A stretch of 64,000 bases of DNA, from the NCBI GenBank assembly GCA_044368015.1, contig JBIPLF010000005.1, positions 2,985 to 66,984 of the forward strand, written 5' to 3'. The position numbers and the translations under genes were made by a program. Source of the stretch: Rickettsiales bacterium. Lineage in GTDB: Bacteria > Pseudomonadota > Alphaproteobacteria > Rickettsiales > RI-342. This document shows positions 10,111 to 63,715 of the stretch, piece after piece. How positions within the stretch are numbered: the stretch's first letter is position 1; each line of letters starts with the position of its first letter. The notes beneath the pieces were generated by a model that saw only the letters and a program-made list of their open reading frames with translations, did no database searches and had not been told where the DNA came from.

Positions 10111-11751
10111 CTAAAAATCGAAGAAGCTGTTGTTGATAACGATATTGTTATGCGACACGTGGCTTGCATCTTCAATCGTCAGGCTGGCACCATCGCCAAA
10201 GGTAAAGGTCAGGCTACCATCCTGATGGTAGGAAGCGAGATTCCACAAAGCCCATTGCGTGCACACAGCCTCGCTATCAATCACCAGCACATCGTCACCG
10301 GAGAGGTCGGTGATGACGTCGGCACCGTCACCCACACGATAGACGAAGTGATCGGAACCCTCGCCACCCGTGAGGGTATCGTCTGATCCCCCACCAATGA
10401 GGGTATCATTCCCGGTGCCGCCCATGAGTTCTGTGCGCCCCACACCCGTTTCAAGACGGTCATCCCCACCCATACCCTTCAACACATAGGCGGAGGGATC
10501 TTCAATTGGATCCATATCGATGATCGAGAGTGCATCGTCTGCGTTTGTCAGCACTTCCTGAAAGCGGAAGAAGTTATCCGCCACATAATGACCCAGCGCG
10601 CTTCCGGCCTCCAGCGCATCGGTATTGGAGAACTGCCAGTGAATCCCGCCATAGATGCGACTGATACCGGCTTCGGCTGCGGCATCGCTGAAGCTATCAA
10701 AGCTGCGCGTGACACCGGGAAGGGCATCGCTAACGGTCGTGAATTGCACGCTATCCATGCCGAACACTTCGGACAGAATTGTCGCCGCCGCCGAGCTGAA
10801 GGTGCTGTGACCGGAGATGTAATCCGGGAAGGGCGGTGTGGCAAGCAGCGGCGTCCAGCTGGCATCGGCCGTGGTCGCGGCATTGCCATCGGTATCAGCC
10901 TCGCGGATCGCCTCAATGGGACGCCAGTTGCCATAGGTGTATTTCGCATCCCAGGCCACAATCGCAGCATCGGCCACGGTTGTGCCCAGCATCGCGAGCA
11001 TCCGGGCATGATCTAGCAGCGTATCCGCCAGCAGACCACTGGATTCCGCAACATCCTGCGCGATACTGTTCCAGTGGCCGGGAGGGGTTTCCGTACCCGC
11101 ACCATCGGCCCAGAATTTGGCGATTTCGGTTTGATCCGCTGTCCGCACCGTGCTGGTGGCCGAACCATAGGCTTTTACCTCGTTAAACGCCGCCGTATAT
11201 TCAGCGGAATCCAGCGCAGGAGGGCCATCGGGACGGAACTGATCACCGCTTTGCATCGTCCAGGGATCCACTCCCGGCCATTGCGGCAGCAAGGGGCCTG
11301 CGAATGCGGGCAGCACCGGATGCCAGTTGCCGGGCGCTTCCGGAAGCGTATACGTCACAACATCCTTAGAACCATCATTGGCACGCAGTTCGAGGATCAT
11401 ATTAGCGACTTGCTGCCCCCAGGCGATACCGGCATCCTTGGCTGCACCATTGGCAACGGTGGCCAGACTCTCAGCGTAATGGGTATCGAGGGTCGTAACG
11501 GTTGGAAACAGCGCCTTCATCACCGTATAGGCAGCAGCGGCAACGCCCGCCTCAGCAGAAGCATTCATGGGAATCTGGTGACCGGTATTGACGAGATAGG
11601 ACTCGTAGGGCGAGCCTTCGATGGTATTCACCGTATCAAACACCGCCGTCTGCACCGCCGCCATCGCCTTCGCAGCGACAGGGGGGGGCGTGGAGGTGCT
11701 GCGGATGGCATCCAGCAGGTAATCGTTCCATTGAAAGACGAGATCGCTCAT
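10111..11751 (-). CDS. PAP2 / vanadium-haloperoxidase-like domain fused to C-terminal RTX calcium-binding repeats
   Basis: PAP2 motifs KYTYGNWRP, SGHSTFS and SRIYGGIHWQFSNTD. Three consecutive nonapeptides (GGTGNDTLI, GGGSDDTLT, GGEGSDHFV). No N-terminal signal peptide. ATG 11751 is preceded by AGGAG. Confidence 0.85.
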   Translation of the reverse strand: MSDLVFQWNDYLLDAIRSTSTPPPVAAKAMAAVQTAVFDTVNTIEGSPYESYLVNTGHQIPMNASAEAGVAAAAYTVMKALFPTVTTLDTHYAESLATVANGAAKDAGIAWGQQVANMILELRANDGSKDVVTYTLPEAPGNWHPVLPAFAGPLLPQWPGVDPWTMQSGDQFRPDGPPALDSAEYTAAFNEVKAYGSATSTVRTADQTEIAKFWADGAGTETPPGHWNSIAQDVAESSGLLADTLLDHARMLAMLGTTVADAAIVAWDAKYTYGNWRPIEAIREADTDGNAATTADASWTPLLATPPFPDYISGHSTFSSAAATILSEVFGMDSVQFTTVSDALPGVTRSFDSFSDAAAEAGISRIYGGIHWQFSNTDALEAGSALGHYVADNFFRFQEVLTNADDALSIIDMDPIEDPSAYVLKGMGGDDRLETGVGRTELMGGTGNDTLIGGGSDDTLTGGEGSDHFVYRVGDGADVITDLSGDDVLVIDSEAVCTQWALWNLASYHQDGSLTFTFGDGASLTIEDASHVSHNNIVINNSFFDF

Positions 11752-11873
11752 GATAGGCACTCCTGATATGGTGAATCGTTACTCTTCAGCATTACGCAGA
11801 AAACTTTACAGAATATTACCGAAAATTGTTACAAAATGATTATTGCCCCTTTACTGATACACCTGTACCCAAA

Positions 11874-27296: not shown

Positions 27297-27325
27297 CTGA
27301 CATCACGCGCATCTCCATCTATAAT
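27297..27325 (+). promoter_or_regulatory. Sigma-70-type promoter, possibly producing a leaderless transcript for the large pilin-like operon
   Basis: CTGACA-17 nt-TATAAT. The -10 element ends 6 nt before ATG 27332 and there is no SD. Confidence 0.45.
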
Positions 27326-27331
27326 GGGCGG

Positions 27332-28747
27332 ATGCGCTTGTTCCGCTCCATGCGAGGCTTCAGCCTCATTGAACTTTCGATTCTGCTCGCCGTGTTTGGC
27401 GCAGCGGCAGCGGCGGCGTTGAGCTGGTTGCAACCCAGCGGGCTGGATGAGTGGCAGAAGGTGGAACTCACGCGCCAGCGGCTGGGGGTGATTGAGCGCT
27501 CGCTGCAAACCTTCCGCGTGCAACAGGGGCGGCTGCCCTGCGCCGCCGACCGGTCGCTGGCCAGCACAGCGGCGGAAGTGGGACAGGAAGATTGCCAGAG
27601 TGCAGGCAGCAGCCTGAATGTGGGGGTGGTCCCCACCCGCACGCTGGGACTGGATATTCAATATATGGAGGATGGCTGGGGACGGCGTTTCTCCTACGCC
27701 GTGGCAACGGATGTGTGCCCCATCAGCACCGTTGCGCCGCTCAACGCGCCACTCAATTGTACGGCGATCACCTATACGTCTGGGACGGGGAATCTCACGG
27801 TGCGCACGCATGATTTACTCACCCCCAACAACACCACCTACGCCAGCGGCACCGCAAATACCTGGGATAACCTCACGACGAGCGCCCTCTATGTGGTCAT
27901 CAGCCATGGCCCCAATGGCGACGGCGCCTGGATGGGAAGCGGCACCCAGAACGCCGTTTCCGGCACGCTCTCAGCGAAGGAAACCGAAAACACCAACCTG
28001 ACCACCGACAGTCTTTTCTTCACCGACGTGCAACGCCCGGATTTCGACGATCTGGTGATTTACGCCACCAAGGCGCAACTGGATGCGGTAACACTCACCA
28101 CCGACCGCTATCCCATCACCAAAAACGAATGCCACGACATCACCAAAACCATCGGCGCGCTCACGGTGGCCGAGGCAGGCGACATGGATAACCTCACCTG
28201 GGATGGCGGTGACACGGCCGATGTGGACATGCTTCGAGTGCTTTGGACCATGCGGGAGGTCTGCTACCGTTACTACGCGCAGGTGGTGGGCGATTGCAAC
28301 GGTGGAACCGGAGAAACGCTCTACACCAAAACCACACCGGGAGCGAAGGCGATTGGTAGTATCGTGTTCTCGGCCAATCCCGCCAATAGCAATACGATTA
28401 CGCTGAACGGTGTCGTCTGGACCTTTGTTAGTGGTGCGGCATCGGGGAATCAAACCCAGATTCAGGGTACATTGGCAAGCACACTAACCCAGCTCGTGAC
28501 CGATCTCAATGCCTCCACCAATAGTTCGTTAGATGACGCCACCTACTCCACCACAAGCGGCACGGCACTGGTGATTTCCCATGACACACCGGGATCAGGT
28601 GGAAACGCCTATACCCTCACCGCTGGAGTGGGTACGGCAAGCGGCGCCACCCTCACCGGAGGTGGCAATGGTGCGGAGAATATCAGTTTCTGCATCGATT
28701 GCCCCACGGGTTTCACCTGGAATGCGGGGAGCGCCACATGCGACTAA
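27332..28747 (+). CDS. Large prepilin-type N-terminal domain protein (471 aa)
   Basis: MRLFRSMRGFSLIELSILLAV. Shares RLPCxA, GWGRRFSY, YVVISHGPNGDGAW and DFDDLVIY with the next gene. The C-terminal ~130 aa are Thr/Ser/Gly/Asn-rich. Confidence 0.85.
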   Translation: MRLFRSMRGFSLIELSILLAVFGAAAAAALSWLQPSGLDEWQKVELTRQRLGVIERSLQTFRVQQGRLPCAADRSLASTAAEVGQEDCQSAGSSLNVGVVPTRTLGLDIQYMEDGWGRRFSYAVATDVCPISTVAPLNAPLNCTAITYTSGTGNLTVRTHDLLTPNNTTYASGTANTWDNLTTSALYVVISHGPNGDGAWMGSGTQNAVSGTLSAKETENTNLTTDSLFFTDVQRPDFDDLVIYATKAQLDAVTLTTDRYPITKNECHDITKTIGALTVAEAGDMDNLTWDGGDTADVDMLRVLWTMREVCYRYYAQVVGDCNGGTGETLYTKTTPGAKAIGSIVFSANPANSNTITLNGVVWTFVSGAASGNQTQIQGTLASTLTQLVTDLNASTNSSLDDATYSTTSGTALVISHDTPGSGGNAYTLTAGVGTASGATLTGGGNGAENISFCIDCPTGFTWNAGSATCD

Positions 28748-29841
28748 TCCCCCCCCCCCATACCGCTTCACGGCTCGGCTATACGCTGATTGAGATGGCG
28801 ATTGTCCTCACCATTGTCGGCGTGATGGTGGCTAGTGTCCTCACCGTCGTGCAGCAAAAAACTGAGGCCGATAAATACCGGCTGACGCTGGAGCGCATGG
28901 ATGCCATTGAATCGGCGCTGATGCGCTATTTTGAACGCAACCGGTCCCTCCCCTGCCCGGCCAGTGGTGCTGCGCGGTACGAATCCGAAACCAGCGGAAG
29001 CTGGGGAGCGGCACTCACCTACGCAACCGCGACCAGCTCCTGCCCCAATGCACCGACGGACGCACGCGGCGTGCCTCCAGTGCGCACCCTGCTGCTCCCC
29101 GACGAGACGATGTATGATGGCTGGGGACGGAAATTCTCCTATCAGCTTTCCAACGGCATGGGATCGCAGGACGACCTCTACAATCAGGATAATAAAGGCA
29201 ATCTGAGTGTCAAAAACCTGCAAGGGTTTGAACTCACCACCCTGAACTTCGAGGGAAAATATGGTGCGGTCTATGTGCTCATCAGCCATGGTCGCAATGG
29301 GTTGCGTGCCTGGCTACCGAATGTATCGGGCAGCGATGCCCTCACCTATATCGACACCGATATTCCGACGACCGACACCCTGCTGGGCGTGGAAATCGAG
29401 AATGTGGATGCTGATACCACCTTCATGCAGGACCTCACCGCTCAGGATTTTGACGATATTTTGCGCTTCAAAACCAAGTCGCAGATTTATGCCGATAAAC
29501 GGTATGTCTCCCCCATACGCCTTTCGTCCCGTGCGTGTGAGAGCGCCCGCGAAGCCCTGACCCATGCAACCGAAAGCTGGGCAGCCTACACCGCCAGCAC
29601 CGCCGTTCCCACGGGTTCGCTCACCGGTAAAAACAAAAAGGACATGATCCTCACCGCCGCACGGGCGCTGGACAAACTCTGCAATGGGAATGTGACCCCA
29701 CTCACCGACGAGTGCGATAGCGACGCCAACGTCACCTGGCAGGGACCGCCCTCCTATGGCCTGTCGGATTGCCGCTGCGTCACCGCAGGGCAACGCCACA
29801 AAACCGATCTGGAAGATGCTCCTCTCGGCGGCTGCGAATAA
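28738..29841 (+). CDS. Large prepilin-type N-terminal domain protein (367 aa), paralog of the preceding gene
   Basis: MRLIPPPHTASRLGYTLIEMAIVLTIVGV. Contains SLPCPA, GWGRKFSY, YVLISHGRNGLRAW and DFDDILRF. The ATG overlaps the upstream stop by 10 nt. Confidence 0.85.
   Translation: MRLIPPPHTASRLGYTLIEMAIVLTIVGVMVASVLTVVQQKTEADKYRLTLERMDAIESALMRYFERNRSLPCPASGAARYESETSGSWGAALTYATATSSCPNAPTDARGVPPVRTLLLPDETMYDGWGRKFSYQLSNGMGSQDDLYNQDNKGNLSVKNLQGFELTTLNFEGKYGAVYVLISHGRNGLRAWLPNVSGSDALTYIDTDIPTTDTLLGVEIENVDADTTFMQDLTAQDFDDILRFKTKSQIYADKRYVSPIRLSSRACESAREALTHATESWAAYTASTAVPTGSLTGKNKKDMILTAARALDKLCNGNVTPLTDECDSDANVTWQGPPSYGLSDCRCVTAGQRHKTDLEDAPLGGCE
28749..28759 (+). repeat. Homopolymeric C11 tract in codons 4-8 of the pilin-like gene
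   Basis: ATG CGA CTA ATC CCC CCC CCC CAT, read directly from the sequence. Confidence 0.95.
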
Positions 29842-29912
29842 CCTGTTTCTTCACTTTTCCCGGTTTTCGTCATCGTTCTGTTACATTCCCATGTCATAGA
29901 TGGGGGTAACCT

Positions 29913-32129
29913 ATGACCATCACGCAGTGGCAGAACGGATTTCGGGTTGATACGCGCAGGGAGCAATCCGGCAGCGTCAGCGGATTCCTGCACCTTCCGG
30001 AGGGGATGGATGCCACCTCTCTCCACCGTTTGCAAACCGCCTGCACCGCCAGAGGGTTACGCACTGATCTGGCCCTTATTCCCCAAAGCACGCAGGCGAT
30101 CCGCGTGCACGGCCTCTCTGCGGAGGATCGGCAAGCACTCCACACGGCCCTGCAACCGAAACTGCGCCCCGGAACCTCTACAGAGATCGAGGGCGACGAG
30201 CTGCTCATCACGGGACTGACCAGCGAGGCAAGCGCGGGATTCCGCCGCTGGATTGAGCGCTATGGCCGTCGCCATCAACTGACGCCTGAGCTGGAATCTT
30301 ACTCAGCCCCCCTCCCGCCCCTGCAAGGCTTGCAGGTGAGCGGTGCGAAAGATGAAAAATCGCTATTCCGCATGGTTGAGGAACTGGAGCTGGGAACCGG
30401 CAAACGCCGCGACGAATATACCGACCTCTCCCCCTGGCGCAAACGCTGGACCCAGATGGTCGAGCAGGCGCGAAGCTGGATGGCGGCTTCGTTTCTGGTC
30501 GGCGACGGACTGACCATCACCTCCACCGTGGTGGATGCGCATCGGCGCGGCATCAACCCACTCGCCCATGAGCAAATGGCGGAAGGGCTGGGATTTGCCA
30601 CCGGGAGCGGGCTGGTATTGCTGGGTGAGAAGCTCGCCAAACCCGCCAGCGAGGAGGCTGTCGTCACCCGTGCCCTCAACGCCTTCCGCAGCGGCGATGG
30701 GTTTGATTTCTCGCATTCCGGACCGTTTGAGCGGGACGGAGCGGTGATCGGTCGTGGCCCGCAACTAGTGCGGCAATGGGTGCAGCATAACAATGTCGAA
30801 TCGCTGATGCTGGCTGATCTCTGGGCGGGTTCCGGCATGTGGAGAGGGCGCAAAATGCGCACCTTCGCCGACCGCAAAGACGCCGACGGCTTCCATGTGG
30901 TACTGGATGACGAAGGCGGTGCCATGCAAACCCATGAACGCCATAAATGGAATGATTATTACTCCGGTATCGCCTACCCCACCGCAGCGGCGATCACCGC
31001 CTTTGTGCCCAAGGAAGGTGACCCCAAACCCTTCATGCATTACCGCAACATGGGGAATCAACTAACGGAGAACCCGTTCGTTTCCGGTCTGCGCAAGGCA
31101 TGGGACGGTTTCCGCGATTCCCCCATCGGACAGGCGATTGCCTACCCGTTTGAGGTGGCGAGCGATTTTATGACCCGCGATCCCTACAAGGTGGGCGGGG
31201 CGTTATTCCTGTCGCACAATATCGGGCAGATTGTGTTCAATGGCCTGTATGCCATGCAGGATCGCGGCAAACGTAACGCCATGCGCTCGCAGTTTGAGGA
31301 TAAATACGAGGCGCTGCTCACCCAGACCGACGTGTCGTTTAAGGGCGAAACACTCCCCCTCACGACGGAATTGCGGCAGAAACTGGCCGAGCTGTACGAT
31401 ACCCATACCCCCATGCTGCCGATCCGGGAAACCGATGCCAGCGGTGCGCCGGTGGAATATGGCAACCGGATGCTGAAAGAACTGGCAGAGAAGCGCCAGC
31501 GCGTGGGCAATGAGGGCCTTTCCACCGAGGACCGCTTCCTGATGCAGGAGGCCTCCGACCGCTACTACCTGACGCATCTGGAAAAACAAACGCAGAGTCT
31601 GGGTCTGCGCTTCGCCGCCTATGCCACCTTCCTGTTTGGTAACGGGATGCTGGCCATGGCCGGGAAAAAGCACGACGCGCAGTCGAACGCACTGGAAACG
31701 CAGGTGAATCCCCTTGCGGTGGTGCGCGGCATGGCGGAAAAGCTACAGGCTGCGAACCTCTCCCCCGAACAGCGGGAACAGGCGGTGACGAACATCGCAA
31801 CCTACCTGCATCAGGACGAAGCGCTGACCCGTTATGGTTTTTCGCAAGCCGAGTATCAGGAGATGCTGCGGGCGAAACTCACCGGACGAACGTCCGAGGT
31901 GGAAGCGGCCTATCTGGCGCAATCGCCGTTACTGAGCGTCATCCTGACGCCGAGCGAAGCGAAGCGGAAGGCCCCCGCAGCAGGCGTGATGTCTGGCGGA
32001 GAGATGCTTCGCGCTGCTCAGCATGACGGATTGAACGCCCTCGCCTCCCTCGCCGCCGCCCCCCAAACCGAAACCGCCACCCCCGACAATATGCGGGCAG
32101 TGGCGGAGATCGGCGATCGAGGGAAGTAG
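29913..32129 (+). CDS. Hypothetical 738-aa protein, distant paralog of 37421-39397
   Basis: Long ORF with SD GGGGG, co-directional with the two pilin-like genes. Several weakly hydrophobic segments; no recognisable catalytic motif. Confidence 0.8.
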   Translation: MTITQWQNGFRVDTRREQSGSVSGFLHLPEGMDATSLHRLQTACTARGLRTDLALIPQSTQAIRVHGLSAEDRQALHTALQPKLRPGTSTEIEGDELLITGLTSEASAGFRRWIERYGRRHQLTPELESYSAPLPPLQGLQVSGAKDEKSLFRMVEELELGTGKRRDEYTDLSPWRKRWTQMVEQARSWMAASFLVGDGLTITSTVVDAHRRGINPLAHEQMAEGLGFATGSGLVLLGEKLAKPASEEAVVTRALNAFRSGDGFDFSHSGPFERDGAVIGRGPQLVRQWVQHNNVESLMLADLWAGSGMWRGRKMRTFADRKDADGFHVVLDDEGGAMQTHERHKWNDYYSGIAYPTAAAITAFVPKEGDPKPFMHYRNMGNQLTENPFVSGLRKAWDGFRDSPIGQAIAYPFEVASDFMTRDPYKVGGALFLSHNIGQIVFNGLYAMQDRGKRNAMRSQFEDKYEALLTQTDVSFKGETLPLTTELRQKLAELYDTHTPMLPIRETDASGAPVEYGNRMLKELAEKRQRVGNEGLSTEDRFLMQEASDRYYLTHLEKQTQSLGLRFAAYATFLFGNGMLAMAGKKHDAQSNALETQVNPLAVVRGMAEKLQAANLSPEQREQAVTNIATYLHQDEALTRYGFSQAEYQEMLRAKLTGRTSEVEAAYLAQSPLLSVILTPSEAKRKAPAAGVMSGGEMLRAAQHDGLNALASLAAAPQTETATPDNMRAVAEIGDRGK
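31938..32027. repeat. Family B palindromic element inside the 738-aa ORF (in frame)
   Basis: GTCATCCTGACGCCGAGCGAAGCGAAGCGG...GAGATGCTTCGCGCTGCTCAGCATGAC, translated as VILTPSEAKRKAPAAGVMSGGEMLRAAQHD. Confidence 0.8.
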
Positions 32130-32246: not shown

Positions 32247-35200
32247 ATGGAATCGCACGATCAATCGCCCAAATGGTGGCAAAATGCTATTATTTATCAG
32301 GTCTACCCCCTCACCTTCCATGCCCCTGACGGGCAATATGGAACGTTACAGGGGGTTACCGAAAAAATGGATCATATCCAATCGCTTGGCGTGGATGCCA
32401 TTTGGTTATCGCCCTTTTTCAAATCTCCACTAGCGGAAGGGTTTGGGTACAATGTAACCGATTATCGCGACATCGCCCCAGAGCTTGGCTCCATGGGCGA
32501 TACAGAAGCCATGATTGCGACGGCTCATGACAAAGGCATGAAGGTGATCTTTGATTTGGTAGTCAATCACACCTCTGATAAACACCCATGGTTTGAAGCG
32601 AGTCGCAATCCCAACCACCCCGACCATTTAAAATACAAAGACTTTTATGTGTGGGCAGACCCCACCTCTGGAGAGGGCGATCCTTCGCTACGCCCACCCA
32701 GCAATTGGAAAGAAATCATTCCTCCTTTTGACGAAAGTGCCTGGACGTGGGAGCCGGAACGGCAGCAATTCTACCTGCATAATTTTGTGGATAGCATGCC
32801 GGATTTGAACCTGCGCAATCCAGAACTGGTCAAGGAATGTCAGGATATCGTGCGCTTCTGGCTGGATAAGGGAGTGGATGGTTTCCGCATGGACGCCATT
32901 CCATTCTTTCTGCATGACGAATCTCTTGCCGATGCGGATTTGGAAAATCCGGACTTCGATGCGCGCTACGCACGTCAGCGTGGCCTGCCGGAAACCACTG
33001 ACGTATTGCGTCAATTACGGGAAGTTGAAAAGGATTATAACCGCGACATCTTCTGGGTTGGGGAGGTTTTTGCCGGCGCTCCTTCCTCCGCTTACGGCGC
33101 GCTCTACACGCAGCCAGGTGCGAATGATCAGGCCTATACGGCATTATTAGCAGGCTCTCCCTTCACTGCGGATGATTGGCCTGCTGCGCTGCAGACCCTT
33201 GCCCCCGAAAAAACCAACTTCGCCAACAGCAACCACGACATGGCACGTGCCATTTCGCGCTGGAATCTGGAGAAAGGCGGGGATGCAGCGGCAAAAATGA
33301 TCGCCGCGCTTACCCTTTCCCTCCCCGGCAGCATCTGCCTTTTTCAAGGCGAAGAACTGGGCCTGCCAGATGCCCCCATCAGTGATATTCGGCGAGACTT
33401 ATTGCATTTTTCTAATCTGGAAGCGCATCGCGACTACGACCCGATCAATATTGCAAAAAATCTTGGCGACGGGGAAACCTGCCGCTCCATGATGCCATGG
33501 TCCATGGATACGGTGAAGCGCAATGACGGCTGGGTGGGCATGCCCGCCAACTATAAAAAATATACCGCCGAAGCACAGGAACAAAATCCCGATTCCGTCC
33601 TCAACTTCTACCGCGCTTTTATCCAGATGCGTAAAACACAGCCCGCGCTTCTGCATGGCGATATCCGGATGCTGGATGATACGCCGGACGGTATCTGTGC
33701 CTTTACACGCTCCTCGCCGGAGCAAAACATCTTATGCGCCTTCAACGGAACCGCGAAGGCACAGACGCTTACCTTGCCGCTTGAGTTAGCACTCGAATAT
33801 CAAACCTCCACGATTACGCTCCCTCCCTATGGGATGGCGTTGCACGATGCGAAAGGCCCTCTTGCGTTGCCGGACGAAATCACCCATAGCAAAAATTTCG
33901 CGCTGGTAGAGACGCAGCCCGATCACTCAGCAGGCGAAAAACTGCGTATCCTGATTGCATCCGCCGAAATCTCGCCCTTCAGCAAGGCAGGCGGATTGGG
34001 GGAGGCCACCAAAGGATTAACTGAGGGACTCGCCGCATTGGGACATGAGGTGCTGGTGATCTCTCCCTGGTACCAAACGAATCATAATGCATTTAAGCCC
34101 GAATGGATCGGAGATGTCAGCGTCCCCTTCGATGGTGAGTATGCAAACGCCAGCGTGGGCTGTGCAGAACGAAACGGAGTAAAGTACGCCTTCGTAGGAT
34201 ATGAACCCTATTTCGGTCGCGATAAGCTTTACGGACATGATGATGATAGCAAGCGTTTCGCGTTGCTAAACCGCGCCGTGCCGGAAGTCGCGGCCAAGCT
34301 GGGCTTCACCCCCGATGTCATCCATGCCAATGATTGGCACACCGGTTACATCCCCGCCATCCTGCACGAGAGTAGTGCGGCGCTGCTTCCGGATGGATTT
34401 GCAGATATTCCTACCGTTGCGAGCATCCATAATGCTCCCTATCAGGGTCAAGCAGGGTTGAAAGACGCCATTCACTGGCTTCGTCTTCCTGGAGATCTCA
34501 CCAACAGAGATGGTATCCGACATCACGGCGATGCTAATCCCCTGCAAGCCAACATCAACTACGCCGATGCGGTGATCACGGTGAGTCCCGGTTATGCAAA
34601 CGAACTGCGCACGCAGCCGGAATTTCAAGCGGGACTGGATATTCACTCCAATGAGCATAAGCTGATCGGCATCACAAACGGGATTGATATCGTCACCTAC
34701 AACCCAGCGAACGATTCCCTCATTCCATCCCCCTTCGATGCCCAGGACCTCTCTGGCAAGCAGGATGCCAAAACACGCTTGTGTCAAACGGTAGGCTTAA
34801 CGGAACCGGAACGCCCCATCGCCAGCATTCTTTCCCGCTTCACTCACCAGAAAGGCGTGGATATTATCGCCCAATCCATGGACGAAATGATCGCACAAGG
34901 GTGGAATCTGGTACTGGCAGGCGGTGGAGATCCGGACCTCACCGCTATGATGCAGCAAGCGGCGAAACATCATCCGGGACGTATTATCATCATCCCCCAA
35001 TTCGTTGGGGCTGAGATGGAACATTTGATCTATGCAGGTAGCGATACCACGCTTCTGCCAAGCCGCTATGAGCCTTGTGGGCAGAATCAAATGCTTGGCC
35101 AGCGATATGGAACCCTCCCCATCGCTCGTCGTACGGGTGGGCTGCAAGACACCGTAGAACACGGTAAGAATGGCTTTGTCTTTGATGAATTAACCCCAGA

Positions 35201-35438
35201 AGCATTCCAGACGGCCTGCCGCGAAGCGATCAGCTTGTATGGCACCCCCGCATGGCAAAAGATGCAACAGACGGCTATGCAGCAGGATAACTCGTGGGCA
35301 CATGCTGCCAAACAATATGAATCCATCTATTATCTACTGCATGAGGCGCGGCAAGCCAAACAATCCGATCATCATCCCGGACACGATTCTTTACGGGAGA
35401 TACAAGATGGGCTGAAGAAGCAAACACAGATAGCTTGA
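32247..35438 (+). CDS. glgA: Fusion protein: GH13 alpha-glucosidase-like domain + glycogen/starch synthase (GT5, GlgA)
   Basis: N-terminal half contains WWQNAIIYQVYPLTF, DLVVNHTS, GVDGFRMDA, VGEVF and SNHDMARA. From about nt 33939 it reads KLRILIASAEISPFSKAGGLGE (the KxGGL motif), with YEPCGQNQM and RRTGGLQDTV later. It is one uninterrupted ORF with SD GGAGG. Confidence 0.9.
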   Translation: MESHDQSPKWWQNAIIYQVYPLTFHAPDGQYGTLQGVTEKMDHIQSLGVDAIWLSPFFKSPLAEGFGYNVTDYRDIAPELGSMGDTEAMIATAHDKGMKVIFDLVVNHTSDKHPWFEASRNPNHPDHLKYKDFYVWADPTSGEGDPSLRPPSNWKEIIPPFDESAWTWEPERQQFYLHNFVDSMPDLNLRNPELVKECQDIVRFWLDKGVDGFRMDAIPFFLHDESLADADLENPDFDARYARQRGLPETTDVLRQLREVEKDYNRDIFWVGEVFAGAPSSAYGALYTQPGANDQAYTALLAGSPFTADDWPAALQTLAPEKTNFANSNHDMARAISRWNLEKGGDAAAKMIAALTLSLPGSICLFQGEELGLPDAPISDIRRDLLHFSNLEAHRDYDPINIAKNLGDGETCRSMMPWSMDTVKRNDGWVGMPANYKKYTAEAQEQNPDSVLNFYRAFIQMRKTQPALLHGDIRMLDDTPDGICAFTRSSPEQNILCAFNGTAKAQTLTLPLELALEYQTSTITLPPYGMALHDAKGPLALPDEITHSKNFALVETQPDHSAGEKLRILIASAEISPFSKAGGLGEATKGLTEGLAALGHEVLVISPWYQTNHNAFKPEWIGDVSVPFDGEYANASVGCAERNGVKYAFVGYEPYFGRDKLYGHDDDSKRFALLNRAVPEVAAKLGFTPDVIHANDWHTGYIPAILHESSAALLPDGFADIPTVASIHNAPYQGQAGLKDAIHWLRLPGDLTNRDGIRHHGDANPLQANINYADAVITVSPGYANELRTQPEFQAGLDIHSNEHKLIGITNGIDIVTYNPANDSLIPSPFDAQDLSGKQDAKTRLCQTVGLTEPERPIASILSRFTHQKGVDIIAQSMDEMIAQGWNLVLAGGGDPDLTAMMQQAAKHHPGRIIIIPQFVGAEMEHLIYAGSDTTLLPSRYEPCGQNQMLGQRYGTLPIARRTGGLQDTVEHGKNGFVFDELTPEAFQTACREAISLYGTPAWQKMQQTAMQQDNSWAHAAKQYESIYYLLHEARQAKQSDHHPGHDSLREIQDGLKKQTQIA

Positions 35439-35497
35439 CTTTTCCGCTGCCTCGCGCCATCCCTCTCCTGTCAAACTCGTTTACAAGGATGGAAGCG

Positions 35498-37129
35498 ATG
35501 CAAATCCCCGGCATGGAAAATGAATGGTGGCGCGGCGGTATTATTTACCAGATTTACCCGCGCAGCTTCGCCGATAGCAATAATGACGGCATTGGCGATC
35601 TGCCGGGCATCACCGCGAAGCTCGACTATATTGCGAGTCTGGGGGTGGACGCGATCTGGATTTCGCCCTTCTTCACCTCGCCGATGAAGGATTTCGGCTA
35701 TGATGTCTCCGACTATTACAGCGTTGACCCGATGTTTGGCACCATTGCCGATTTTAAGGCGCTGACGGAAAAAGCCCACGCACTGGGCATCAAGGTGATG
35801 ATTGATCAGGTGATCAGCCATTCCTCCGACCAACATGTCTGGTTTACCGAAAGCCGGGCAAACAAAACCAATCCCAAAGCCGATTGGTATGTGTGGGCCG
35901 ATGCTAAACCGGACGGCACTCCTCCCAACAACTGGTTGTCCATTTTCGGCGGCAGCGCGTGGGAATGGGATACGCGTCGCCAACAATATTACATGCATAA
36001 CTTCCTGAAATCACAGCCAGACCTCAACTTCCACAATCCGGAAGTGCGGCAGGCGTTGCTCGATATTCTGGAATTCTGGCTGAAGCTGGGAGTAGATGGG
36101 TTCCGCTTAGATACCGCTAATTATTATTTCCACGACCAGCAATTGCGCGATAATCCGGCCAACAGCGAAAAACTCTCCGACGTGCCGGAATCCAACCCCT
36201 ACAGCAAGCAGCAGCATATCTACGACAAAACCCGTCCGGAGAATGTGGCGTTTCTGGAGGATCTCCGCAAGGTGCTGGACAAATACCCCGGCAGCACCAC
36301 GGTCGGCGAGATCGGTGCGCATAACGCGCTGGAGATTATGCCCGTCTATACCGAGCACAATAAACGCCTGCATATGGTGTATAGTTTCGAGTTTCTGAAC
36401 AACCAGTATGGCGCAGGCTATTTCCGTCAGGTGATTACCCAACTGGAATCGAAAATCCACAATGGCTGGCCCTGCTGGGCCTTCGGTAATCACGACGTGC
36501 CGCGTGCCGTGAGCCGCTGGGGGGCGCATCTCACCCCCGCACAACAGGAGCGGTTTGCGACGTTCCTGCCGGGGCTGCTACTCAGCTTCCGCGGTTCCTA
36601 CTGCCTGTATCAGGGCGAGGAACTGGGGCTGCTGGAAGCCGAAATTCCGTTCGAGAAACTGCAAGACCCCTATGGCATTACCTTCTGGCCGGAGTTCAAG
36701 GGCCGCGATGGATGCCGCACGCCGATCCCGTGGGAATCGGGCAAACCGAATGCCGGTTTTTCGAGTGCCGAGCCATGGCTTCCCGTACCCGCCGATCACC
36801 AGTCTCGCGCCGCGAACACACAGAATGGCAAACCCAGTTCCACGCTGGAACATTACCGGAACATCCTGCATTGGCGGAAATCGCAACCCGCGCTGCGCTT
36901 CGGGGAGATTGCGTTTGTGGATGCGCCGGAACCGCTGCTGGTGTTCGACCGTACCTATCAGGGGACGACGATCCGCGTGGTGGCGAATATGAGTGAAACC
37001 GCCCAAACCCTCTCCATTGCGGGCTGGCCTGCCATGCAACCGCTGGAAGGGCATGGCTATGACGCGAGCCTCAACGGCACGACGCTCTCGCTGCCCGGTC
37101 ACAGCTTGTGGTTTGGCACGGTGGGGTAG
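35498..37129 (+). CDS. Alpha-glucosidase (GH13)
   Basis: Contains WWRGGIIYQIYPRSFADSNNDGIGDL, DQVISHSS, GVDGFRLDT, VGEI and GNHDVPR. Start chosen at ATG 35498 after AAGGA. Confidence 0.92.
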   Translation: MQIPGMENEWWRGGIIYQIYPRSFADSNNDGIGDLPGITAKLDYIASLGVDAIWISPFFTSPMKDFGYDVSDYYSVDPMFGTIADFKALTEKAHALGIKVMIDQVISHSSDQHVWFTESRANKTNPKADWYVWADAKPDGTPPNNWLSIFGGSAWEWDTRRQQYYMHNFLKSQPDLNFHNPEVRQALLDILEFWLKLGVDGFRLDTANYYFHDQQLRDNPANSEKLSDVPESNPYSKQQHIYDKTRPENVAFLEDLRKVLDKYPGSTTVGEIGAHNALEIMPVYTEHNKRLHMVYSFEFLNNQYGAGYFRQVITQLESKIHNGWPCWAFGNHDVPRAVSRWGAHLTPAQQERFATFLPGLLLSFRGSYCLYQGEELGLLEAEIPFEKLQDPYGITFWPEFKGRDGCRTPIPWESGKPNAGFSSAEPWLPVPADHQSRAANTQNGKPSSTLEHYRNILHWRKSQPALRFGEIAFVDAPEPLLVFDRTYQGTTIRVVANMSETAQTLSIAGWPAMQPLEGHGYDASLNGTTLSLPGHSLWFGTVG

Positions 37130-37328: not shown

Positions 37329-37340
37329 CCCCCCCCCCCC
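37329..37340. repeat. Homopolymeric C12 (G12 on the minus strand) tract
   Basis: Read directly from the sequence. It lies 81 nt beyond the stop of the 658-aa gene. Confidence 0.95.
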
Positions 37341-37420: not shown

Positions 37421-39397
37421 CTATCCGTGGTGCGCGCCCTGCACCGCCGCTTGCTGCTCGGTGACAGCACGCAAGGAAGCATCCTCGACCGTCGGTTCGG
37501 CCGGAGCATGTTCGGCGGTCTGGGCGGCGGCGGCGTGCTTCAACCCACTTTCCTTGGCGATTGGGGCCACGCTGTGTGCCACGGCAAGCATGGGCGTGTT
37601 GCCTTTGGGAATGGATGCGAGTTTGGTCGGTTGGGAAACAAACCGGTTTTCCTCCATTTTCTCCACCATCTGGGTCAGATTCTGGCGGATTTCTTCTGCA
37701 CTCACCGCAAATTTATCAACCACAGTGCTGAGATGCGTCGCCATTTCCGTGATGGCACGGCCACGGTCTTCCGGTGCCACGGCAAGGGCCATCTGGGCAT
37801 AGCGTCCCAGCACCATTTTGCCCGCGGGGCCTTGTTTTTCCAGCCAGCTTTTATCGGCGCCATCGCTTCCCAGTTCCGAGCCATGCTGCTTGGAAGTGAT
37901 CGCCGTCATGGCGCTCGACATCGTCCACAGCCCCAGACTGGCAATGGCCGCCGTATAGGCATTTTTGAACGGGTTTTTGGAGCCGCTTTGATCCGAGGCT
38001 TCCGCCTTTTCGGCGGTGGCGAGTTCGCTTTCCACCTGCCCGCGCACATCCAACAATTGATGCAGCTTTTCCAGCCCCGTGACCCCGGTCCGCTCAATGA
38101 CCGTTTGCAGGCGGTGTTCCGGATTATTTTGCAAGCTGCGAGCTTTCCATTTCTCCTGTAACGCATCGGGCGAGAATCCGGCCAGCGTCGCCTTGGCCGA
38201 TTCCATAATCCCTTCCAGGCTGAGCTTCGCTTCCGGTGTATCCTGACGCTCCGTTTCCAGAAACTCCTTGCGCCATTCCTGAATCCGCCCGGCAATGGTC
38301 GTACCTTTGGGGCCTACTGCATTCCAATCCACCCCGCCCAGCAGCACATCGCTGATGGCCTGATTGGCGCGGTCACGCAGTTCGTAATGCGAGGCGTGCT
38401 GGGTACCGTCCTTATCCGTCCAACCCGTCATGCGCTTGGTGTAGGTGCTTTTGAGGGAGAGCACGTCGGCCCACATCAGCGCGTTATCCAACAACTGATT
38501 CAGCCCCATGATCCGCACCGGGCGTTCCTGCACGAAGGAAATAAACCGACGGATCGGCCCCGGATTTTCCGGCATCCGCTGATCTTCCACCGCTTTTTCG
38601 GGTAGCAGGGAGGCGGTCAGCGCACCGGCGGCAGCGGTCGCCCCCGCAAAGGCACGGGTATATTGGCGATCATCAAGCCCGGATTTCACCAGTTGCAGGT
38701 TCCCCGGAATCCCCAAGGACGCATTCACCAGAATCGGATTGCGGGAGACAAATCCCACAAATTTTTGCAGAATATTACGGTTGTCCTGCATCTCCTGATG
38801 CGTGGTTTCATATTCGCTTTTTTCAATCTCGATGCCGCTTTTGGAAAGCTGATGGCGCGTTTCGTTGGCCAGGTTCTCAACGGAGGCGTTCAGCGCCTGC
38901 GCACCATTCCCGAATGCCGCCAGAATAATGGTCGCCGCACCATAGAGCTTCGATGCGCTGACAATGGATTCATCATCCAGAATCCGCCCGCGACGGTAGA
39001 GAAACACATGCCCCAAACAACCGAAGGTGCCGTCCAGCCGGGTGGCGTTACGCTGTATATTCACCCATGCCCGTTGCAAGAAATTGCCGCTTTGCTCGCG
39101 TGCATCGGAGAATTCCACCTGTGGTTCGCCGGAGATCGCTCCGGCCTGATGGAGGGCGCGAGTCAGAGACTTTTCATTACGACCAAGCGCCACCATCAGC
39201 ACATTTTCGCCATCCACCACGGAGGGAACGGCCTGAAACCCCTGTTTCAGCAGATGGGTAGCCAGTTGTTGCTGGTCGCCCGGCATCCCGGCTTCGCCCG
39301 CATGGAGAATAGCGAACTTACCCATGGGGCTGTGATCGATATCGATTTTGCTAACAACCGAACCGGTATTCTTCCAATGCAGGCTTTTGGTGATCAT
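37421..39397 (-). CDS. Hypothetical 658-aa protein, distant paralog of 29913-32129
   Basis: Long ORF with SD GGGGA, directly downstream of pilin-like gene 39474-40220. The plus-strand ORFs 37265-38161 and 38663-39454 are judged to be shadows. Confidence 0.75.
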   Translation of the reverse strand: MITKSLHWKNTGSVVSKIDIDHSPMGKFAILHAGEAGMPGDQQQLATHLLKQGFQAVPSVVDGENVLMVALGRNEKSLTRALHQAGAISGEPQVEFSDAREQSGNFLQRAWVNIQRNATRLDGTFGCLGHVFLYRRGRILDDESIVSASKLYGAATIILAAFGNGAQALNASVENLANETRHQLSKSGIEIEKSEYETTHQEMQDNRNILQKFVGFVSRNPILVNASLGIPGNLQLVKSGLDDRQYTRAFAGATAAAGALTASLLPEKAVEDQRMPENPGPIRRFISFVQERPVRIMGLNQLLDNALMWADVLSLKSTYTKRMTGWTDKDGTQHASHYELRDRANQAISDVLLGGVDWNAVGPKGTTIAGRIQEWRKEFLETERQDTPEAKLSLEGIMESAKATLAGFSPDALQEKWKARSLQNNPEHRLQTVIERTGVTGLEKLHQLLDVRGQVESELATAEKAEASDQSGSKNPFKNAYTAAIASLGLWTMSSAMTAITSKQHGSELGSDGADKSWLEKQGPAGKMVLGRYAQMALAVAPEDRGRAITEMATHLSTVVDKFAVSAEEIRQNLTQMVEKMEENRFVSQPTKLASIPKGNTPMLAVAHSVAPIAKESGLKHAAAAQTAEHAPAEPTVEDASLRAVTEQQAAVQGAHHG

Positions 39398-39473: not shown

Positions 39474-40220
39474 TTATTGGCCACTGCTCCGCTTTAGCGC
39501 AAAAGATAGGGCGCAGCTTCTGCCGGCACTGGCCAGTGTATTGTAGATCATCCGCCCGCCGGATGTGGTGGTGCAGGCGGTTCCCACACGCGACTGCACA
39601 CGCCCGGAATCCGGCCAGCCATCATCGGCTTTGGTGTCGATGGCTTTCGCCTCATTCTGACTGAGTATGGTAGTGGAGCTAAAACTTGCAGCGGTTTGCC
39701 CTCCCAGTACCAGCACATTGCCTACGCTGTTGTTGGTGACCGTGACAGCCGCAGTTCCGGGGGTATCGCTGTGTTTCCAGATGGCGTCGGCAGGGGCGAT
39801 GTAATAAAAGGAATAACCCGCCGCCTTATTAATTTTGGATGCCGGAATATTCGTGCCAATCACCGCCATGGCGCTGGACACCGCCCCCGTATAACGGCCG
39901 GGAATCAGTTTGGTTTGCATCAGGTGATACCAGGCTTGCAGCCCTTCCGTATTCCATGGGCTGATCTGCCCATCACCATTGCCATTGACCGCTGCCGTCC
40001 ACGCCGTTTGCGATGTCGCCAGCACAAAATCGCCGGGCAATCCCTGATATTGGGTTTCAAACTCATGCACTCCCCGGCGATAGGCTTCCACTTCCTCTAC
40101 CACGCCCTGAATTTTGCTGGCGCGGATCATGGACTGAGCCGCAATCACCGCTCCGGCCAGAATGCCCACAATCGTGAGTACAATAGCCAGTTCCACCAAT
40201 GAAAAACCCCGATTATCCAT
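39474..40220 (-). CDS. Prepilin-type N-terminal domain protein (small pilin-like paralog 2)
   Basis: MDNRGFSLVELAIVLTIVGILAGAV, with a 5-aa leader and SD GGAG. Shares YQGLPGD, NGDGQI and DTKADDGWP with the other small paralogs. Confidence 0.85.
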   Translation of the reverse strand: MDNRGFSLVELAIVLTIVGILAGAVIAAQSMIRASKIQGVVEEVEAYRRGVHEFETQYQGLPGDFVLATSQTAWTAAVNGNGDGQISPWNTEGLQAWYHLMQTKLIPGRYTGAVSSAMAVIGTNIPASKINKAAGYSFYYIAPADAIWKHSDTPGTAAVTVTNNSVGNVLVLGGQTAASFSSTTILSQNEAKAIDTKADDGWPDSGRVQSRVGTACTTTSGGRMIYNTLASAGRSCALSFALKRSSGQ

Positions 40221-40624: not shown

Positions 40625-41344
40625 ATGCGTAGCCCGCGCCAGCAAGGCTTCACGCTGGTGGAGCTTTCCATCGTCCTTGTCATCGTCGGCCTGATTCTCG
40701 GCGGCGTGATGGTGGGGCGGAGTATGATACGCAGCAGTCAGGTCGGTAAAATTGGGCAAGATTTGCAGGCCTATGAAGCAGCAACCCAGATGTTCATCGA
40801 TAAATATCAGGGTTTACCGGGAGATATGACCAATGCGACGACATTCTGGACGGGTGCGGTTAATGGAAATGGAGATGGGCTCATCAATGTCAGTGATGAA
40901 TCATTTCGGTCTTGGCAGCACCTTACGTCTGCGGGCCTGATTAAAGGTCGCTTCAGTGGGGTCACAGGGAGCGGATCTGTAACAGATTTTGAGCCAGGTA
41001 ATAATGTCCCACGCGGTCCCGTTTCTGGAACGGGCTATATGCTATTCAATCTGGGAACCGTAACCATTGGCTGTGATTGGTGGCCGTATGCGTACCGGAA
41101 TGTTCTGCTTTACGGCAAAGACAGTGGCACATCCTATACCTATCAGGCTATCCTGACCCCTGCAGAATTGTATGCGATTGACCTTAAGTACGATGATGGC
41201 AAACCGGTAACTGGCATCGTATTCTCAGGCCAGAAAGCCTGCGCGACGGTCAATTGTACCACCACAACCGATCCCGCCACGACGGACTATAACACATCCT
41301 ATCAGGGAGAAGCCTGCAATCTCATCTATCGGCTGAATGTTTAG
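40625..41344 (+). CDS. Prepilin-type N-terminal domain protein (small pilin-like paralog 3)
   Basis: MRSPRQQGFTLVELSIVLVIVGLILGGVMVGRSMIRSSQV, with a canonical 8-aa leader. Close paralog of 7860-8732. Confidence 0.9.
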   Translation: MRSPRQQGFTLVELSIVLVIVGLILGGVMVGRSMIRSSQVGKIGQDLQAYEAATQMFIDKYQGLPGDMTNATTFWTGAVNGNGDGLINVSDESFRSWQHLTSAGLIKGRFSGVTGSGSVTDFEPGNNVPRGPVSGTGYMLFNLGTVTIGCDWWPYAYRNVLLYGKDSGTSYTYQAILTPAELYAIDLKYDDGKPVTGIVFSGQKACATVNCTTTTDPATTDYNTSYQGEACNLIYRLNV

Positions 41345-42684: not shown

Positions 42685-42760
42685 ATGCTGTTTTCCCCCC
42701 CCCCCGACCCCTCCCCCCCTGACGGGGGGGGGCCATGTTAAGTTGATTTGAGAGGTAAAT

Positions 42761-57312: not shown

Positions 57313-57640
57313 ATGGTTATGAAGGTCAATGGAAATGAAGGCGGCCCGATCGTTAATCTTTATACAGGAGATCGTGGTGCATTTCAGGTGGGCGGGCAAG
57401 GCTACAGCATTAACATATTGGATCAACAGCGTAACGAGTTGGATACTTTCACCCCCCCCCCCCGCAGGGCAGGATGCGGTGGAGTATGTGGCGAACGCGT
57501 TAACTGGTGCCGTGCTCAAACACGGGGCCGGTGAGATACACGGCGTTGATATCGATCGTCGCTATGATGATAATGCACGGAGTAAACACTGGATCGCAGA
57601 TGTGGCCACAACGCTGCGTAACAATGGAGTTGTGAAATAG
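57313..57640 (+). pseudogene. Small gene split by a C12 tract (two frames: 57313-57534 and the tail of 57329-57640)
   Basis: In frame 1, MVMKVNGNEGGPIVNLYTGDRGAFQVGGQGYSINILDQQRNELDTFTPPP looks protein-like up to the tract. After the tract, frame 2 (AGQDAVEYVANALTGAVLKHGAGEIHGVDIDRRYDDNARSKHWIADVATTLRNNGVVK) looks protein-like, while frame 1 turns Arg/Cys-rich. Confidence 0.5.
57452..57463 (+). repeat. Homopolymeric C12 tract
   Basis: Read directly from the sequence. Confidence 0.95.
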
Positions 57641-62947: not shown

Positions 62948-63715
62948 CTACTCCACGCTCTTTGCCTTGCAGGTGGCGAAGTCAGGGCAGCGGGCGGCGA
63001 GTTCGGCGGTGGCGGAACCAATCAGCGCGGCGCCGCTGGCTTTGACGGGTAGCATACCGGCATTATCCTCCACCCAGATGGTGATGTCCGGCTCCTGATT
63101 TTGCATCTTTTTTATTTCCTTATCCGTGAAACCGGCAATCGGGTCACGTCGGAAACGGAAGCCCAGCAGGTCGTCCTTGGCACCCACATAGCGTAAGCGG
63201 AGATCGGCCAGCCGCCGCCCATCATACATGGGAGTGCTGTAAGAGACCGGCGCGGTTCCGGCCTTCCATTCGCGTAATTTCTGCCACACCAGTGGAATCA
63301 TGGTGAGGGTGTCGTACGCCCCGTTGCGTTGGCCGTCTGGCACTTTTTTGCGCTTCCACACCGGGTCCGGCGGAGAGTAGGAATCGCTGATAATCCGTCG
63401 CTGACGGTCCCAGAAGAGGGTGATGCGTTTTTCGCCGCTCTTGCGGGTGCGGGACCAGGTTTCAAACCGCTGGGGGATGTAGTCTTTCCCCTCGCGAATG
63501 CCCTCTACCGTGGTGAGGCTTTTGTATTTGCTGATGCTGCGGGCCAGCCCCAGCGCCACCATATCCACCTTGATGCGATAGCTGGTTGCGTCTTCCTGAA
63601 CTTCCGCCACCAGATTGCCGATATGCATCGGCCCCCAATAGACGCGGTACCACGCGGCTTGTGTCGCGGCGTGGAGGGGGGGGGCGAGGAGGAGGAACAG
63701 GAGGAGCGCCGTCAT
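62948..63715 (-). CDS. DUF3108 domain protein (secreted)
   Basis: Start trimmed to ATG 63715 (MTALLLFLLLAPPLHA, a signal peptide). YRVYWGPMHIGNLV...YDTLTMIPLV... matches the recalled DUF3108 pattern. The upstream part of the ORF is repeat-encoded. Confidence 0.8.
   Translation of the reverse strand: MTALLLFLLLAPPLHAATQAAWYRVYWGPMHIGNLVAEVQEDATSYRIKVDMVALGLARSISKYKSLTTVEGIREGKDYIPQRFETWSRTRKSGEKRITLFWDRQRRIISDSYSPPDPVWKRKKVPDGQRNGAYDTLTMIPLVWQKLREWKAGTAPVSYSTPMYDGRRLADLRLRYVGAKDDLLGFRFRRDPIAGFTDKEIKKMQNQEPDITIWVEDNAGMLPVKASGAALIGSATAELAARCPDFATCKAKSVE

Follow-up and report, generated by a model that had tools for sequence, protein, structure and literature searches.

Modular type IV pilins are widespread and architecturally diverse proteins that are probably displayed at the tips of filaments, and described examples include two pilins of Streptococcus sanguinis, PilB and PilC, which bear a vWA module and a concanavalin/LamG lectin module, respectively, as well as CofB/TcpB, ComZ and GspK (PMC8179133). 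Components of type IV pili have also been found in basal Rickettsiales, where a role in attachment has been proposed (PMC9352585, PMC10847448). In this study, we analyzed a stretch of 64,000 nucleotides (nt) from a Rickettsiales bacterium (assembly GCA_044368015.1, contig JBIPLF010000005.1, positions 2,985 to 66,984 of the forward strand; hereafter the window, with its first letter as position 1), in which two overlapping genes, O1 and O2, encode large prepilin-type proteins and are followed by O3, a gene for a protein of 738 amino acids (aa). We consider it probable, though well short of certain, that O1 and O2 are modular type IV pilin-like proteins, translated together and conserved as a pair, and that they belong to a filament system resembling type IV pili (T4P) and type II secretion systems (T2SS) whose machinery is encoded elsewhere in the genome. 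Direct support for this comes from the signal motifs of the two proteins, a pilin-like model fold, their paralogy, the conserved pairing of their genes, the swapping of modules among orthologues, and the linkage of relatives to filament machinery.

A paired family of prepilin-type proteins

Both proteins begin with a short leader and a class III signal motif. The O1 gene (27332-28747, + strand) encodes 471 aa, of which the first nine form the leader MRLFRSMRG, ending in Gly9 and followed by FSLIEL, with Glu at +5; the O2 gene (28738-29841 from its ATG, + strand) encodes 367 aa, starting with the 14-aa leader MRLIPPPHTASRLG, which ends in ASRLG with Gly14 and is followed by YTLIEM, again with Glu at +5. 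The hydrophobic stretches behind the motifs have Kyte-Doolittle values of 2.26 (O1) and 2.67 (O2). A first-pass annotation, made from the letters of the sequence, had drawn attention to the two class III motifs (G/FSLIELS and G/YTLIEMA) and to internal motifs common to both proteins, and these are confirmed: with 30% identity over ~250 aa (E = 4e-24), O1 and O2 are paralogues, and they have in common RLPC/SLPC, GWGR[RK]FSY, Y[VL][VL]ISHG.NG..AW and DFDD[LI], most of which are invariant throughout the family. Their cysteine contents (10 in O1 and 8 in O2) are compatible with exported, disulfide-bonded proteins.

Existing profiles capture little of these proteins, as Pfam and NCBIfam see only the N-terminal motif in either of them. 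O2 scored 20.5 bits against TIGR02532, above the cut-off of 16.3, and 19.7 bits against PF07963, below the cut-off of 21.2. The GspG, GspH, GspI and ComG profiles gave 12-25 bits against cut-offs of 44-89, and those for GspH/I/J, ComGC/D/E, PpdD-like proteins and Myxococcus PilA all stayed at or below 25 bits against cut-offs of 44-400, matching only the first ~30-65 residues. No PilV, PilW, PilX, FimT or FimU profile was found among the NCBIfam matches of O1 and O2. With all GspG/H/I/J, ComG and PilA scores far below their cut-offs, the two proteins stand outside the characterized minor-pilin families, as the first-pass annotation had supposed. Judged from sequence, O1 and O2 are paralogues within a large type IV pilin-like family that neither Pfam nor NCBIfam describes.

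The size of this family became apparent from the 303 homologues of O2, which come from metagenome-assembled genomes with the labels Rickettsiales, Alphaproteobacteria or Rhodospirillaceae; Betaproteobacteria and a few Planctomycetes have homologues as well. Its members have in common a module of ~240 aa that is set by the invariants E5, LPCP, a second cysteine (C102), DGW.R..Y, SHG.NG and FDD. O1-type and O2-type proteins were told apart by separate hidden Markov models (HMMs) for each paralogue group, and they also differ in their C-terminal cysteine motifs, [FY]CxCP..W..C in the O1 type and DCxC...FGxC[E] in the O2 type. A check of gene neighborhoods showed that an O1-type gene precedes an O2-type gene in 15 distinct loci in addition to the window, all from uncultured Alphaproteobacteria, with the paired genes on the same strand and mostly overlapping or abutting. 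Several of the nearest relatives also have flanking synteny, with a Bax1-I/YccA gene upstream, while the 3' neighbors of the other pairs are HSP20, infC or other genes. The conserved pairing points to an old duplication with two products that would be interdependent.

An AlphaFold2 model of O2, which was built separately on an alignment of 87 sequences, has an alpha1 helix of 52 residues (17-68) followed by a beta-sheet of 6 strands (pTM 0.67), with a predicted local distance difference test (pLDDT) score mostly >90 for aa 20-200. The pilin module extends to ~aa 255, and is followed by a helical hairpin (~aa 264-320) and a Cys-rich C-terminal module, which has low pLDDT and no known domain. 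Among structures in the PDB, the best Foldseek match to this model was the type IVb pilin CofA (9iuf_A; probability 1.0, E = 4e-3), with 176 aligned columns, 15% identity, and template modeling (TM) scores of 0.27 and 0.45 when normalized to query and target, respectively; the next matches were the gonococcal pilin 1ay2 and the CofA crystal structure 3s0t. By its model, O2 has a fold that is pilin-like, yet far from that of any solved pilin. O1 has the same architecture, i.e., a pilin module to ~aa 255 and a helical hairpin at ~aa 264-323, and ends in the cysteine motif FCIDCP..W..C. A Foldseek search with the whole O1 model was dominated by an inserted domain (see below) and was uninformative with respect to the pilin head.

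The genes themselves are tightly arranged. The last 10 nt of the O1 coding region are also the first 10 nt of O2, and O3 (29913-32129, + strand), which belongs to a small separate family, follows O2 after 71 nt. The longest open reading frame (ORF) of O2 opens at a TTG at 28699, and a Shine-Dalgarno-like sequence, GGGGAG, lies 6 nt 5' of its ATG. Upstream of O1, a sigma-70-like promoter (CTGACA-17-TATAAT; 27297-27325, + strand) ends 6 nt 5' of the ATG at 27332, and this putative O1 promoter is the sole match to TTGACA-N17-TATAAT with at most one mismatch on both strands of the 64 kb, where 0.08 matches would be expected by chance (8 of 100 shuffled sequences had one). The three ORFs, the overlap, the gap and the near-consensus promoter had all been correctly described in the first-pass annotation. 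From the geometry of promoter and ATG, a leaderless O1 mRNA is plausible; this arrangement is not conserved upstream of O1 orthologues in relatives. O3 may be co-transcribed with O1 and O2, as the three genes have no terminator-like site between them on the + strand. The GC composition over 27.3-32.1 kb gave no foreign-DNA signature, and an Rfam scan of the whole window found no RNA family.

Interchangeable C-terminal modules and a phage-type domain in O1

Orthologues of the two proteins span lengths from ~340 to 1335 aa, and what they carry behind the pilin module varies from one to the next. Lectin domains of the LamG/concanavalin-like kind (PF13385) are borne by orthologues of either type (loci L014, L016 and L017 of our collection), and other members of the family have NHL, SMP-30, WD40, PD40 or pentapeptide modules. 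The O2-type orthologues at L016 (9956-13963) and L017 (7511-10978) reach 1155-1335 aa, with 1-3 LamG domains each. At a further locus (L027, 11430-13643), we observed a 737-aa prepilin-type protein with thrombospondin type-1 repeats, which stands beside or within the family.

In O1, the additional module is of an unexpected kind. The segment encoded at 28331-28708 (+ strand; aa ~334-459) is homologous to a phage tail/sheath decoration domain, and its ~110-aa core (aa 334-445) is modeled as a separate alpha/beta domain with pLDDT values of 94-98. It sits just ahead of the terminal cysteine motif, and is therefore an insertion and not a terminal fusion. At the sequence level, it is 50-68% identical to the domain at residues ~90-205 of 424-aa proteins that are assigned to PF18906 (phage tail tube) and phrog_290, and the same domain is found, sometimes twice, in PF11134 head-closure-like, sheath-like and TadG-like (PF13400) proteins; the insert also matches phrog_28344. 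No match was obtained between O1 and the PF18906 tube core in Pfam, and the likeness is confined to the inserted domain of the phage-like proteins. In Foldseek searches, the insert was matched by the sheath of cyanophage A-1(L), in its outer domain (8kee, E = 2e-4), and by major tail proteins predicted for viruses (E = 8e-11 to 5e-9), and more weakly by flagellin D2/D3 and other sheath outer domains. Among the pilin-family proteins that we recovered, O1 alone carries this phage-type insert.

The first-pass annotation had described the C-terminal ~130 aa of O1 as a Thr/Ser/Asn/Gly-rich region reminiscent of adhesin tips. The composition is real, but the region is a folded domain (pLDDT >90) rather than a low-complexity one. 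The tip-adhesin idea fits a modular design with swapped C-terminal modules, while the accompanying claim that the locus is a self-contained module did not find support. According to its model, O1 is a modular pilin, in which a pilin module is joined to a separately folded domain that is not a pilus domain, and both the domain swapping among orthologues and the insert of O1 fit the design known from other modular pilins.

Filament machinery, partner pilins and competing explanations

Among window ORFs of at least 100 aa, none has a T2SSE, T2SSF, secretin or peptidase A24 domain, and these machinery domains are also absent from the 10 kb that adjoin the window on its left. The domain scan thereby agrees with the first-pass annotation, which had listed no ATPase, platform, secretin or prepilin peptidase in the 64 kb. 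Relatives in other genomes tell more about where such proteins belong. In the 80 genome loci that were retrieved with the family profile, a PilB/GspE-type ATPase lies within 10 kb of the family gene in 27, and of these ATPase loci 24 also have a GspF-type platform and 15 a secretin. The ATPase of these clusters is matched equally well by PilB and GspE and has an MshE-type cyclic di-GMP motif, and conserved genes for a TPR protein, a ~540-aa protein and a ~215-aa protein also occur in the machinery clusters of relatives. A secretin is near the family gene or genes in L010, L023 and L034 too, and of these three only L010 has a clear O1/O2-differentiated pair.

The window itself holds three additional prepilin-type genes that the earlier annotation had overlooked, namely pA (~7887-8732, + strand; GFTLVEL), pB (39474-40220, - strand; GFSLVEL) and pC (40625-41344, + strand; GFTLVEL), of which pC lies divergently to pB and has 49% identity with pA. 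Their products are mutually paralogous (35-49% identical), have ~240 aa in the mature form, and are like O1 and O2 in the N-terminal helix only. Full-length homologues of pA, pB and pC (28-34% identity over ~250 aa) were found in 13 loci, mostly those that bear machinery. In two of them (L056 and L064), a pA-type homologue is directly upstream of the family gene, in the order secretin, two other genes, pA-type pilin, family gene, family-like gene, one other gene, ATPase, platform, and the 540-aa and 215-aa genes; the order in L063 is secretin, TPR, ATPase and platform, followed further on by family gene, family-like gene and pilin. Because homologues of pA, pB and pC partner the O1/O2 family in machinery loci, the window would appear to carry both pilin classes of one filament system, as five genes spread over 34 kb with no machinery among them. 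Within such a system, the pA type, which is the first pilin gene of the cluster and of suitable size, is the better candidate for the major subunit, and O1 and O2 would be minor ones.

These observations suggest how the two proteins might work. O1 and O2 would enter the inner membrane by means of their class III signals, and a prepilin peptidase would cut them after Gly9 and Gly14, respectively. The alpha1 helix and the pilin module could then dock both proteins into a filament that, judging by the gene order of relatives, would consist mostly of pA/pB/pC-type pilins. Given their size and strict pairing, O1 and O2 are expected to be subunits of low abundance, probably a tip or priming pair, whose C-terminal parts, i.e., the hairpin and disulfide-rich knob and in O1 also the phage-type domain, would be shown on the outside as putative binding modules.

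Several points weigh against this interpretation. O1 falls just under the cut-offs of the profiles for its own signal (15.4 against 16.3 bits for TIGR02532, and 15.1 against 21.2 bits for the N_methyl profile PF07963), and the family profile, when compared with all PDB sequences, matches pilin alpha1 helices only. The globular pilin module is only marginally similar to solved pilins, as the TM score of 0.45 indicates, and the O1 model is poor at aa 145-265. With neither the 64 kb nor the 10 kb to their left holding a machinery gene, the presence of the machine in this genome is something that we infer, and the tip location, the formation of a heterodimer, and the binding of ligands are predictions. 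Finally, a phage-type domain of this kind is normally found on repeating polymer subunits, so that O1 could be an abundant subunit of the filament shaft.

Among the alternatives, the nearest is that O1 and O2 are pseudopilins of a T2SS-like machine, forming part of a periplasmic piston with C-terminal modules that touch secreted cargo, which we think unlikely. GspG and GspH are the only named profiles with signal beyond alpha1, a distant family member matches GspG with E = 1.6e-10, and the JGI annotation of both O1 and O2 is 'pseudopilin PulG'; moreover, the clusters of relatives, with their secretin, GspE-like ATPase and GspF, are T2SS-like. Against this, all GspG/H/I/J scores are far below the cut-offs, with GspG (TIGR01710, equivalog cut-off 88.85 bits) giving 15.9 bits for O1 and 25.3 bits for O2 in the N-terminal helix region only, and no GspC, GspL or GspM profile was seen. 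The cluster ATPase resembles PilB as much as GspE and has the MshE-type motif, and LamG domains, beta-propellers and orthologues of >1000 aa suit external display better than a piston.

That O1, perhaps together with O2, is the major shaft subunit of a thick filament coated by the inserted domain, in the manner of flagellin D2/D3 or a phage sheath, is in our judgment distinctly improbable. Outside O1, the inserted domain is carried by tail tube, sheath and sheath-like proteins, which repeat along helical polymers, and it has a weak likeness to flagellin outer domains, and the near-consensus promoter of O1 suggests strong expression, both of which would suit a shaft protein. However, the insert is unique to one orthologue, and the role of major pilin would better suit the three smaller pilins of ~240 aa, whose type comes first in the clusters of relatives; a conserved one-to-one partnership with O2 and highly variable modules in proteins of up to 1335 aa are typical of minor or tip subunits.

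The first-pass annotation had itself proposed an operon of O1, O2 and O3 as a candidate self-contained module or a novel pseudopilus cargo system. In such a system, canonical machinery would be dispensable, and O3 would be the cargo or would help in assembly. The three genes are on the same strand with close spacing and no + strand terminator-like site between them, no machinery is encoded in the 64 kb, and two other large orphans accompany pilin genes: one lies downstream of the pair in L002 and is weakly similar to the O3 family in a profile comparison (81%, E = 1e-5), and the other, of 658 aa, comes after pB in the window and matches that region very weakly. What decides against the proposal, which we regard as very improbable, is that O3 does not travel with the pair. 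An O3-family gene was found in 0 of the 15 other O1-O2 loci, so that the 738-aa gene is not co-conserved with the pilins, an outcome that the first-pass annotation had itself named as speaking against its reading; O3 homologues occur without pilins in L008 and in L089, where the homologue adjoins a histidine kinase. O3 has neither a signal peptide nor a convincing transmembrane segment. Furthermore, the pilin pair looks like a scattered component and not a self-contained module, because its relatives sit in complete type IV filament clusters together with homologues of pA, pB and pC, which are partner-type pilins that the window also encodes. Prepilins are not known to be processed or polymerized without peptidase, ATPase and platform.

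O3 deserves a description of its own. Its family comprises 14 representatives in 1.84 billion proteins (exhaustive HMMER search), whereas a word-indexed homology search returned only O3 itself; no Pfam domain was found in O3, and the family has no homologue among PDB sequences. The SPOR profile PF05036 (gathering threshold 21 bits) did not match O3, and scored 24.7 bits on the homologue P0243 (aa 32-85) and 18.5 bits on P0252. The SPOR-scoring stretch of P0243 aligns to ~aa 25-78 of O3, and a profile search against the PDB gave no SPOR structure; as a weak lead, the N-terminus of O3 is possibly SPOR-like, or peptidoglycan-binding-like. The tandem O3-family paralogues at L008 (3656-7987; 702 and 725 aa), which have no pilin gene nearby, indicate that the O3 family expands independently of pilins, and the L008 contig and the pair locus L002 come from the same sample (SRR33375164). 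With regard to the other large orphans, alignment with hhalign gave a marginal match of the O3 family to the 612-aa protein of L002 (the 81% match above) and a poorer one (11%, E = 0.003), over the same O3 region, to the 658-aa ORF (37421-39397, - strand) directly downstream of pB, which has no Pfam match and may be a remote relative of the O3 family or a chance match. The 590-aa protein of L005 gave nothing with hhalign, and neither did BLASTP of O3 against the 612-aa protein. A kinship of O3 with the large orphans beside pilins, which had been considered, is unproven, and an hmmsearch with the O3 family missed them even at E up to 10. By these comparisons, O3 is a lineage-specific neighbor that is probably outside the functional unit of the pilins.

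The leader peptide of O2 contains a homopolymeric C11 tract (28749-28759, + strand; codons 4-8) that may be a slipped-strand phase-variation switch of O2, a candidate that we regard as only a lead. In Neisseria, the adhesin gene pilC is phase-variable through a poly-G tract in its signal-peptide region, which is an obvious parallel. JGI holds a 348-aa version of O2 that starts at Met20 and would be without the prepilin motif, and such a gene call would be expected if that assembly had a tract of another length. G/C homopolymers of 9 nt or more are a feature of the window as a whole, with 7 in its 64 kb and 0 in ~120 kb from related loci. The others are at 37329-37340, 42695-42705, 42724-42732, 57452-57463, 62196-62204 and 63676-63684, and not all of them can be switches, because some lie in housekeeping genes such as murE; a tract in a DUF3108 gene was also seen. 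At 42695-42732, between genes for a class-III aminotransferase and an ornithine carbamoyltransferase, a C11 and a G9 tract are separated by an 18-nt spacer, and these arms could form a hairpin of G-C pairs only.

We think it very improbable that O1 and O2 are decaying or without function, as the remains of a pilus system that has been lost, kept by chance among scattered genes: the machinery is unlinked, the C11 tract could be a frameshift hotspot, and the shorter 348-aa call exists in another assembly, but both ORFs are intact and keep the family invariants E5, LPCP, C102, DGW, SHG and FDD, pair and order are kept in 15 loci, promoter-like and Shine-Dalgarno-like signals are present, and five intact prepilin genes lie within 64 kb.

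Taken together with our preferred reading of O1 and O2 as a modular pilin pair, several of these leads could be combined into a bolder proposal, to which we would attach little credence as a whole. The pair might be the variable, phase-switchable adhesive tip of a type IV filament whose subtype has not yet been described, from uncultured Alphaproteobacteria that resemble Rickettsiales. Here the captured phage domain of O1 would bind glycans on host or prey surfaces that are used by phages, or else act as a decoy, and O3-type proteins, with no signal peptide and maybe a SPOR-like region, would be export substrates of the machine.

Other genes of the window and comparison with known systems

Elsewhere in the window, two adjacent TrbC/VirB2-type genes (type IV secretion pilin; 4404-5678 and ~4024-4329, both - strand) were seen. 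The product of the former has 424 aa, and repeats of the Cys-containing form 'LDANG.P.C' make up a long extension of its C-terminus. The surroundings of the two genes showed no further type IV secretion gene, and a gene for a DUF6973 protein (2518-3540, - strand) adjoins. A 549-aa protein (10111-11760, - strand) combines a PAP2/vanadium-haloperoxidase-like domain with an RTX calcium-binding repeat, and its gene has a G8 tract near the 5' end. Downstream of O3, a gene for a 1063-aa fusion of an alpha-amylase domain and a glycogen-synthase-type glycosyltransferase (GT5/GT1; 32247-35438, + strand) overlaps by 4 nt with a second alpha-amylase-family gene (35435-37129, + strand).

Modular type IV pilins, pilin genes that are unlinked from their machinery, and type IV pili in basal Rickettsiales were already known; what is new here is the definition of a pilin-module family, the conserved pairing of O1 and O2, and the unique insertion of a phage decoration domain. 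Two annotations of the 'PulG-like / hypothetical' kind become a defined family of >300 members with no Pfam model and with interchangeable display modules, and this family is tied to a recognizable set of type IV filament machinery in Alphaproteobacteria and Betaproteobacteria. In basal or environmental Rickettsiales-like bacteria, where type IV pili are suspected to take part in host attachment, O1/O2 pairs are obvious candidates for the adhesins that determine specificity, and a phage decoration domain inside a pilin is an example of the traffic of domains between phages and the surface filaments of their hosts. The accepted working of type IV filaments is unchanged by these results, and their value lies in annotation and in the choice of candidates for experiments.

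The insertion in O1 resembles the decoration domains of phage tail-tube and sheath proteins in that these too are inserted within their carrier proteins. O1 has only the decoration domain in common with the phage proteins, with no tube or sheath core, and its carrier is a pilin.

CofA of CFA/III from enterotoxigenic Escherichia coli (9iuf, 3s0t), the top structural match of O2, has a large pilin head, as has O2. In contrast to type IVb pilins, which have long leaders, O1 and O2 have short ones (9 and 14 aa) and F or Y at +1, in the style of type IVa pilins and the T2SS, and they are found without type IVb or Tcp-like machinery context.

The similarities to GspG, GspH and the PulG COG of the T2SS include the short leader, the G/(F or Y)-T-L-I-E type of motif and the long alpha1 helix, weak profile matches to TIGR01710 and TIGR01708, and, in relatives of O1 and O2, the adjoining secretin, GspE-like ATPase and GspF-like platform. 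Nevertheless, both proteins stay at 16-25 bits where the GspG and GspH cut-offs are 80-89, they are 2.5-3.5 times longer than GspG, their globular part is seen neither by GspG profiles nor by sequence profiles of the PDB, and the best structural match of the O2 model is a type IVb pilin.

The closest correspondence is with the modular pilins, with which O1 and O2 have in common a class III signal and a pilin module that bears an extra module, which in O1 is not specific to pili, the swapping of modules between orthologues, and a large size with an expected low abundance. They are encoded as a pair, like the PilA-PilC complex, and their orthologues of both types bear the LamG domain (PF13385) that is also found in S. 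sanguinis PilC. They differ from the described modular pilins in that their pilin module is a distinct family of ~240 aa (LPCP, DGWGR, ISHG.NG) with no Pfam model, in the addition of a helical hairpin and a CxC...C knob after this module, and in their host, a diderm alphaproteobacterium in which the machinery is unlinked. In O1, moreover, the foreign domain is set within the C-terminal knob instead of being appended to it, and it is of the type that decorates phage tails and sheaths.

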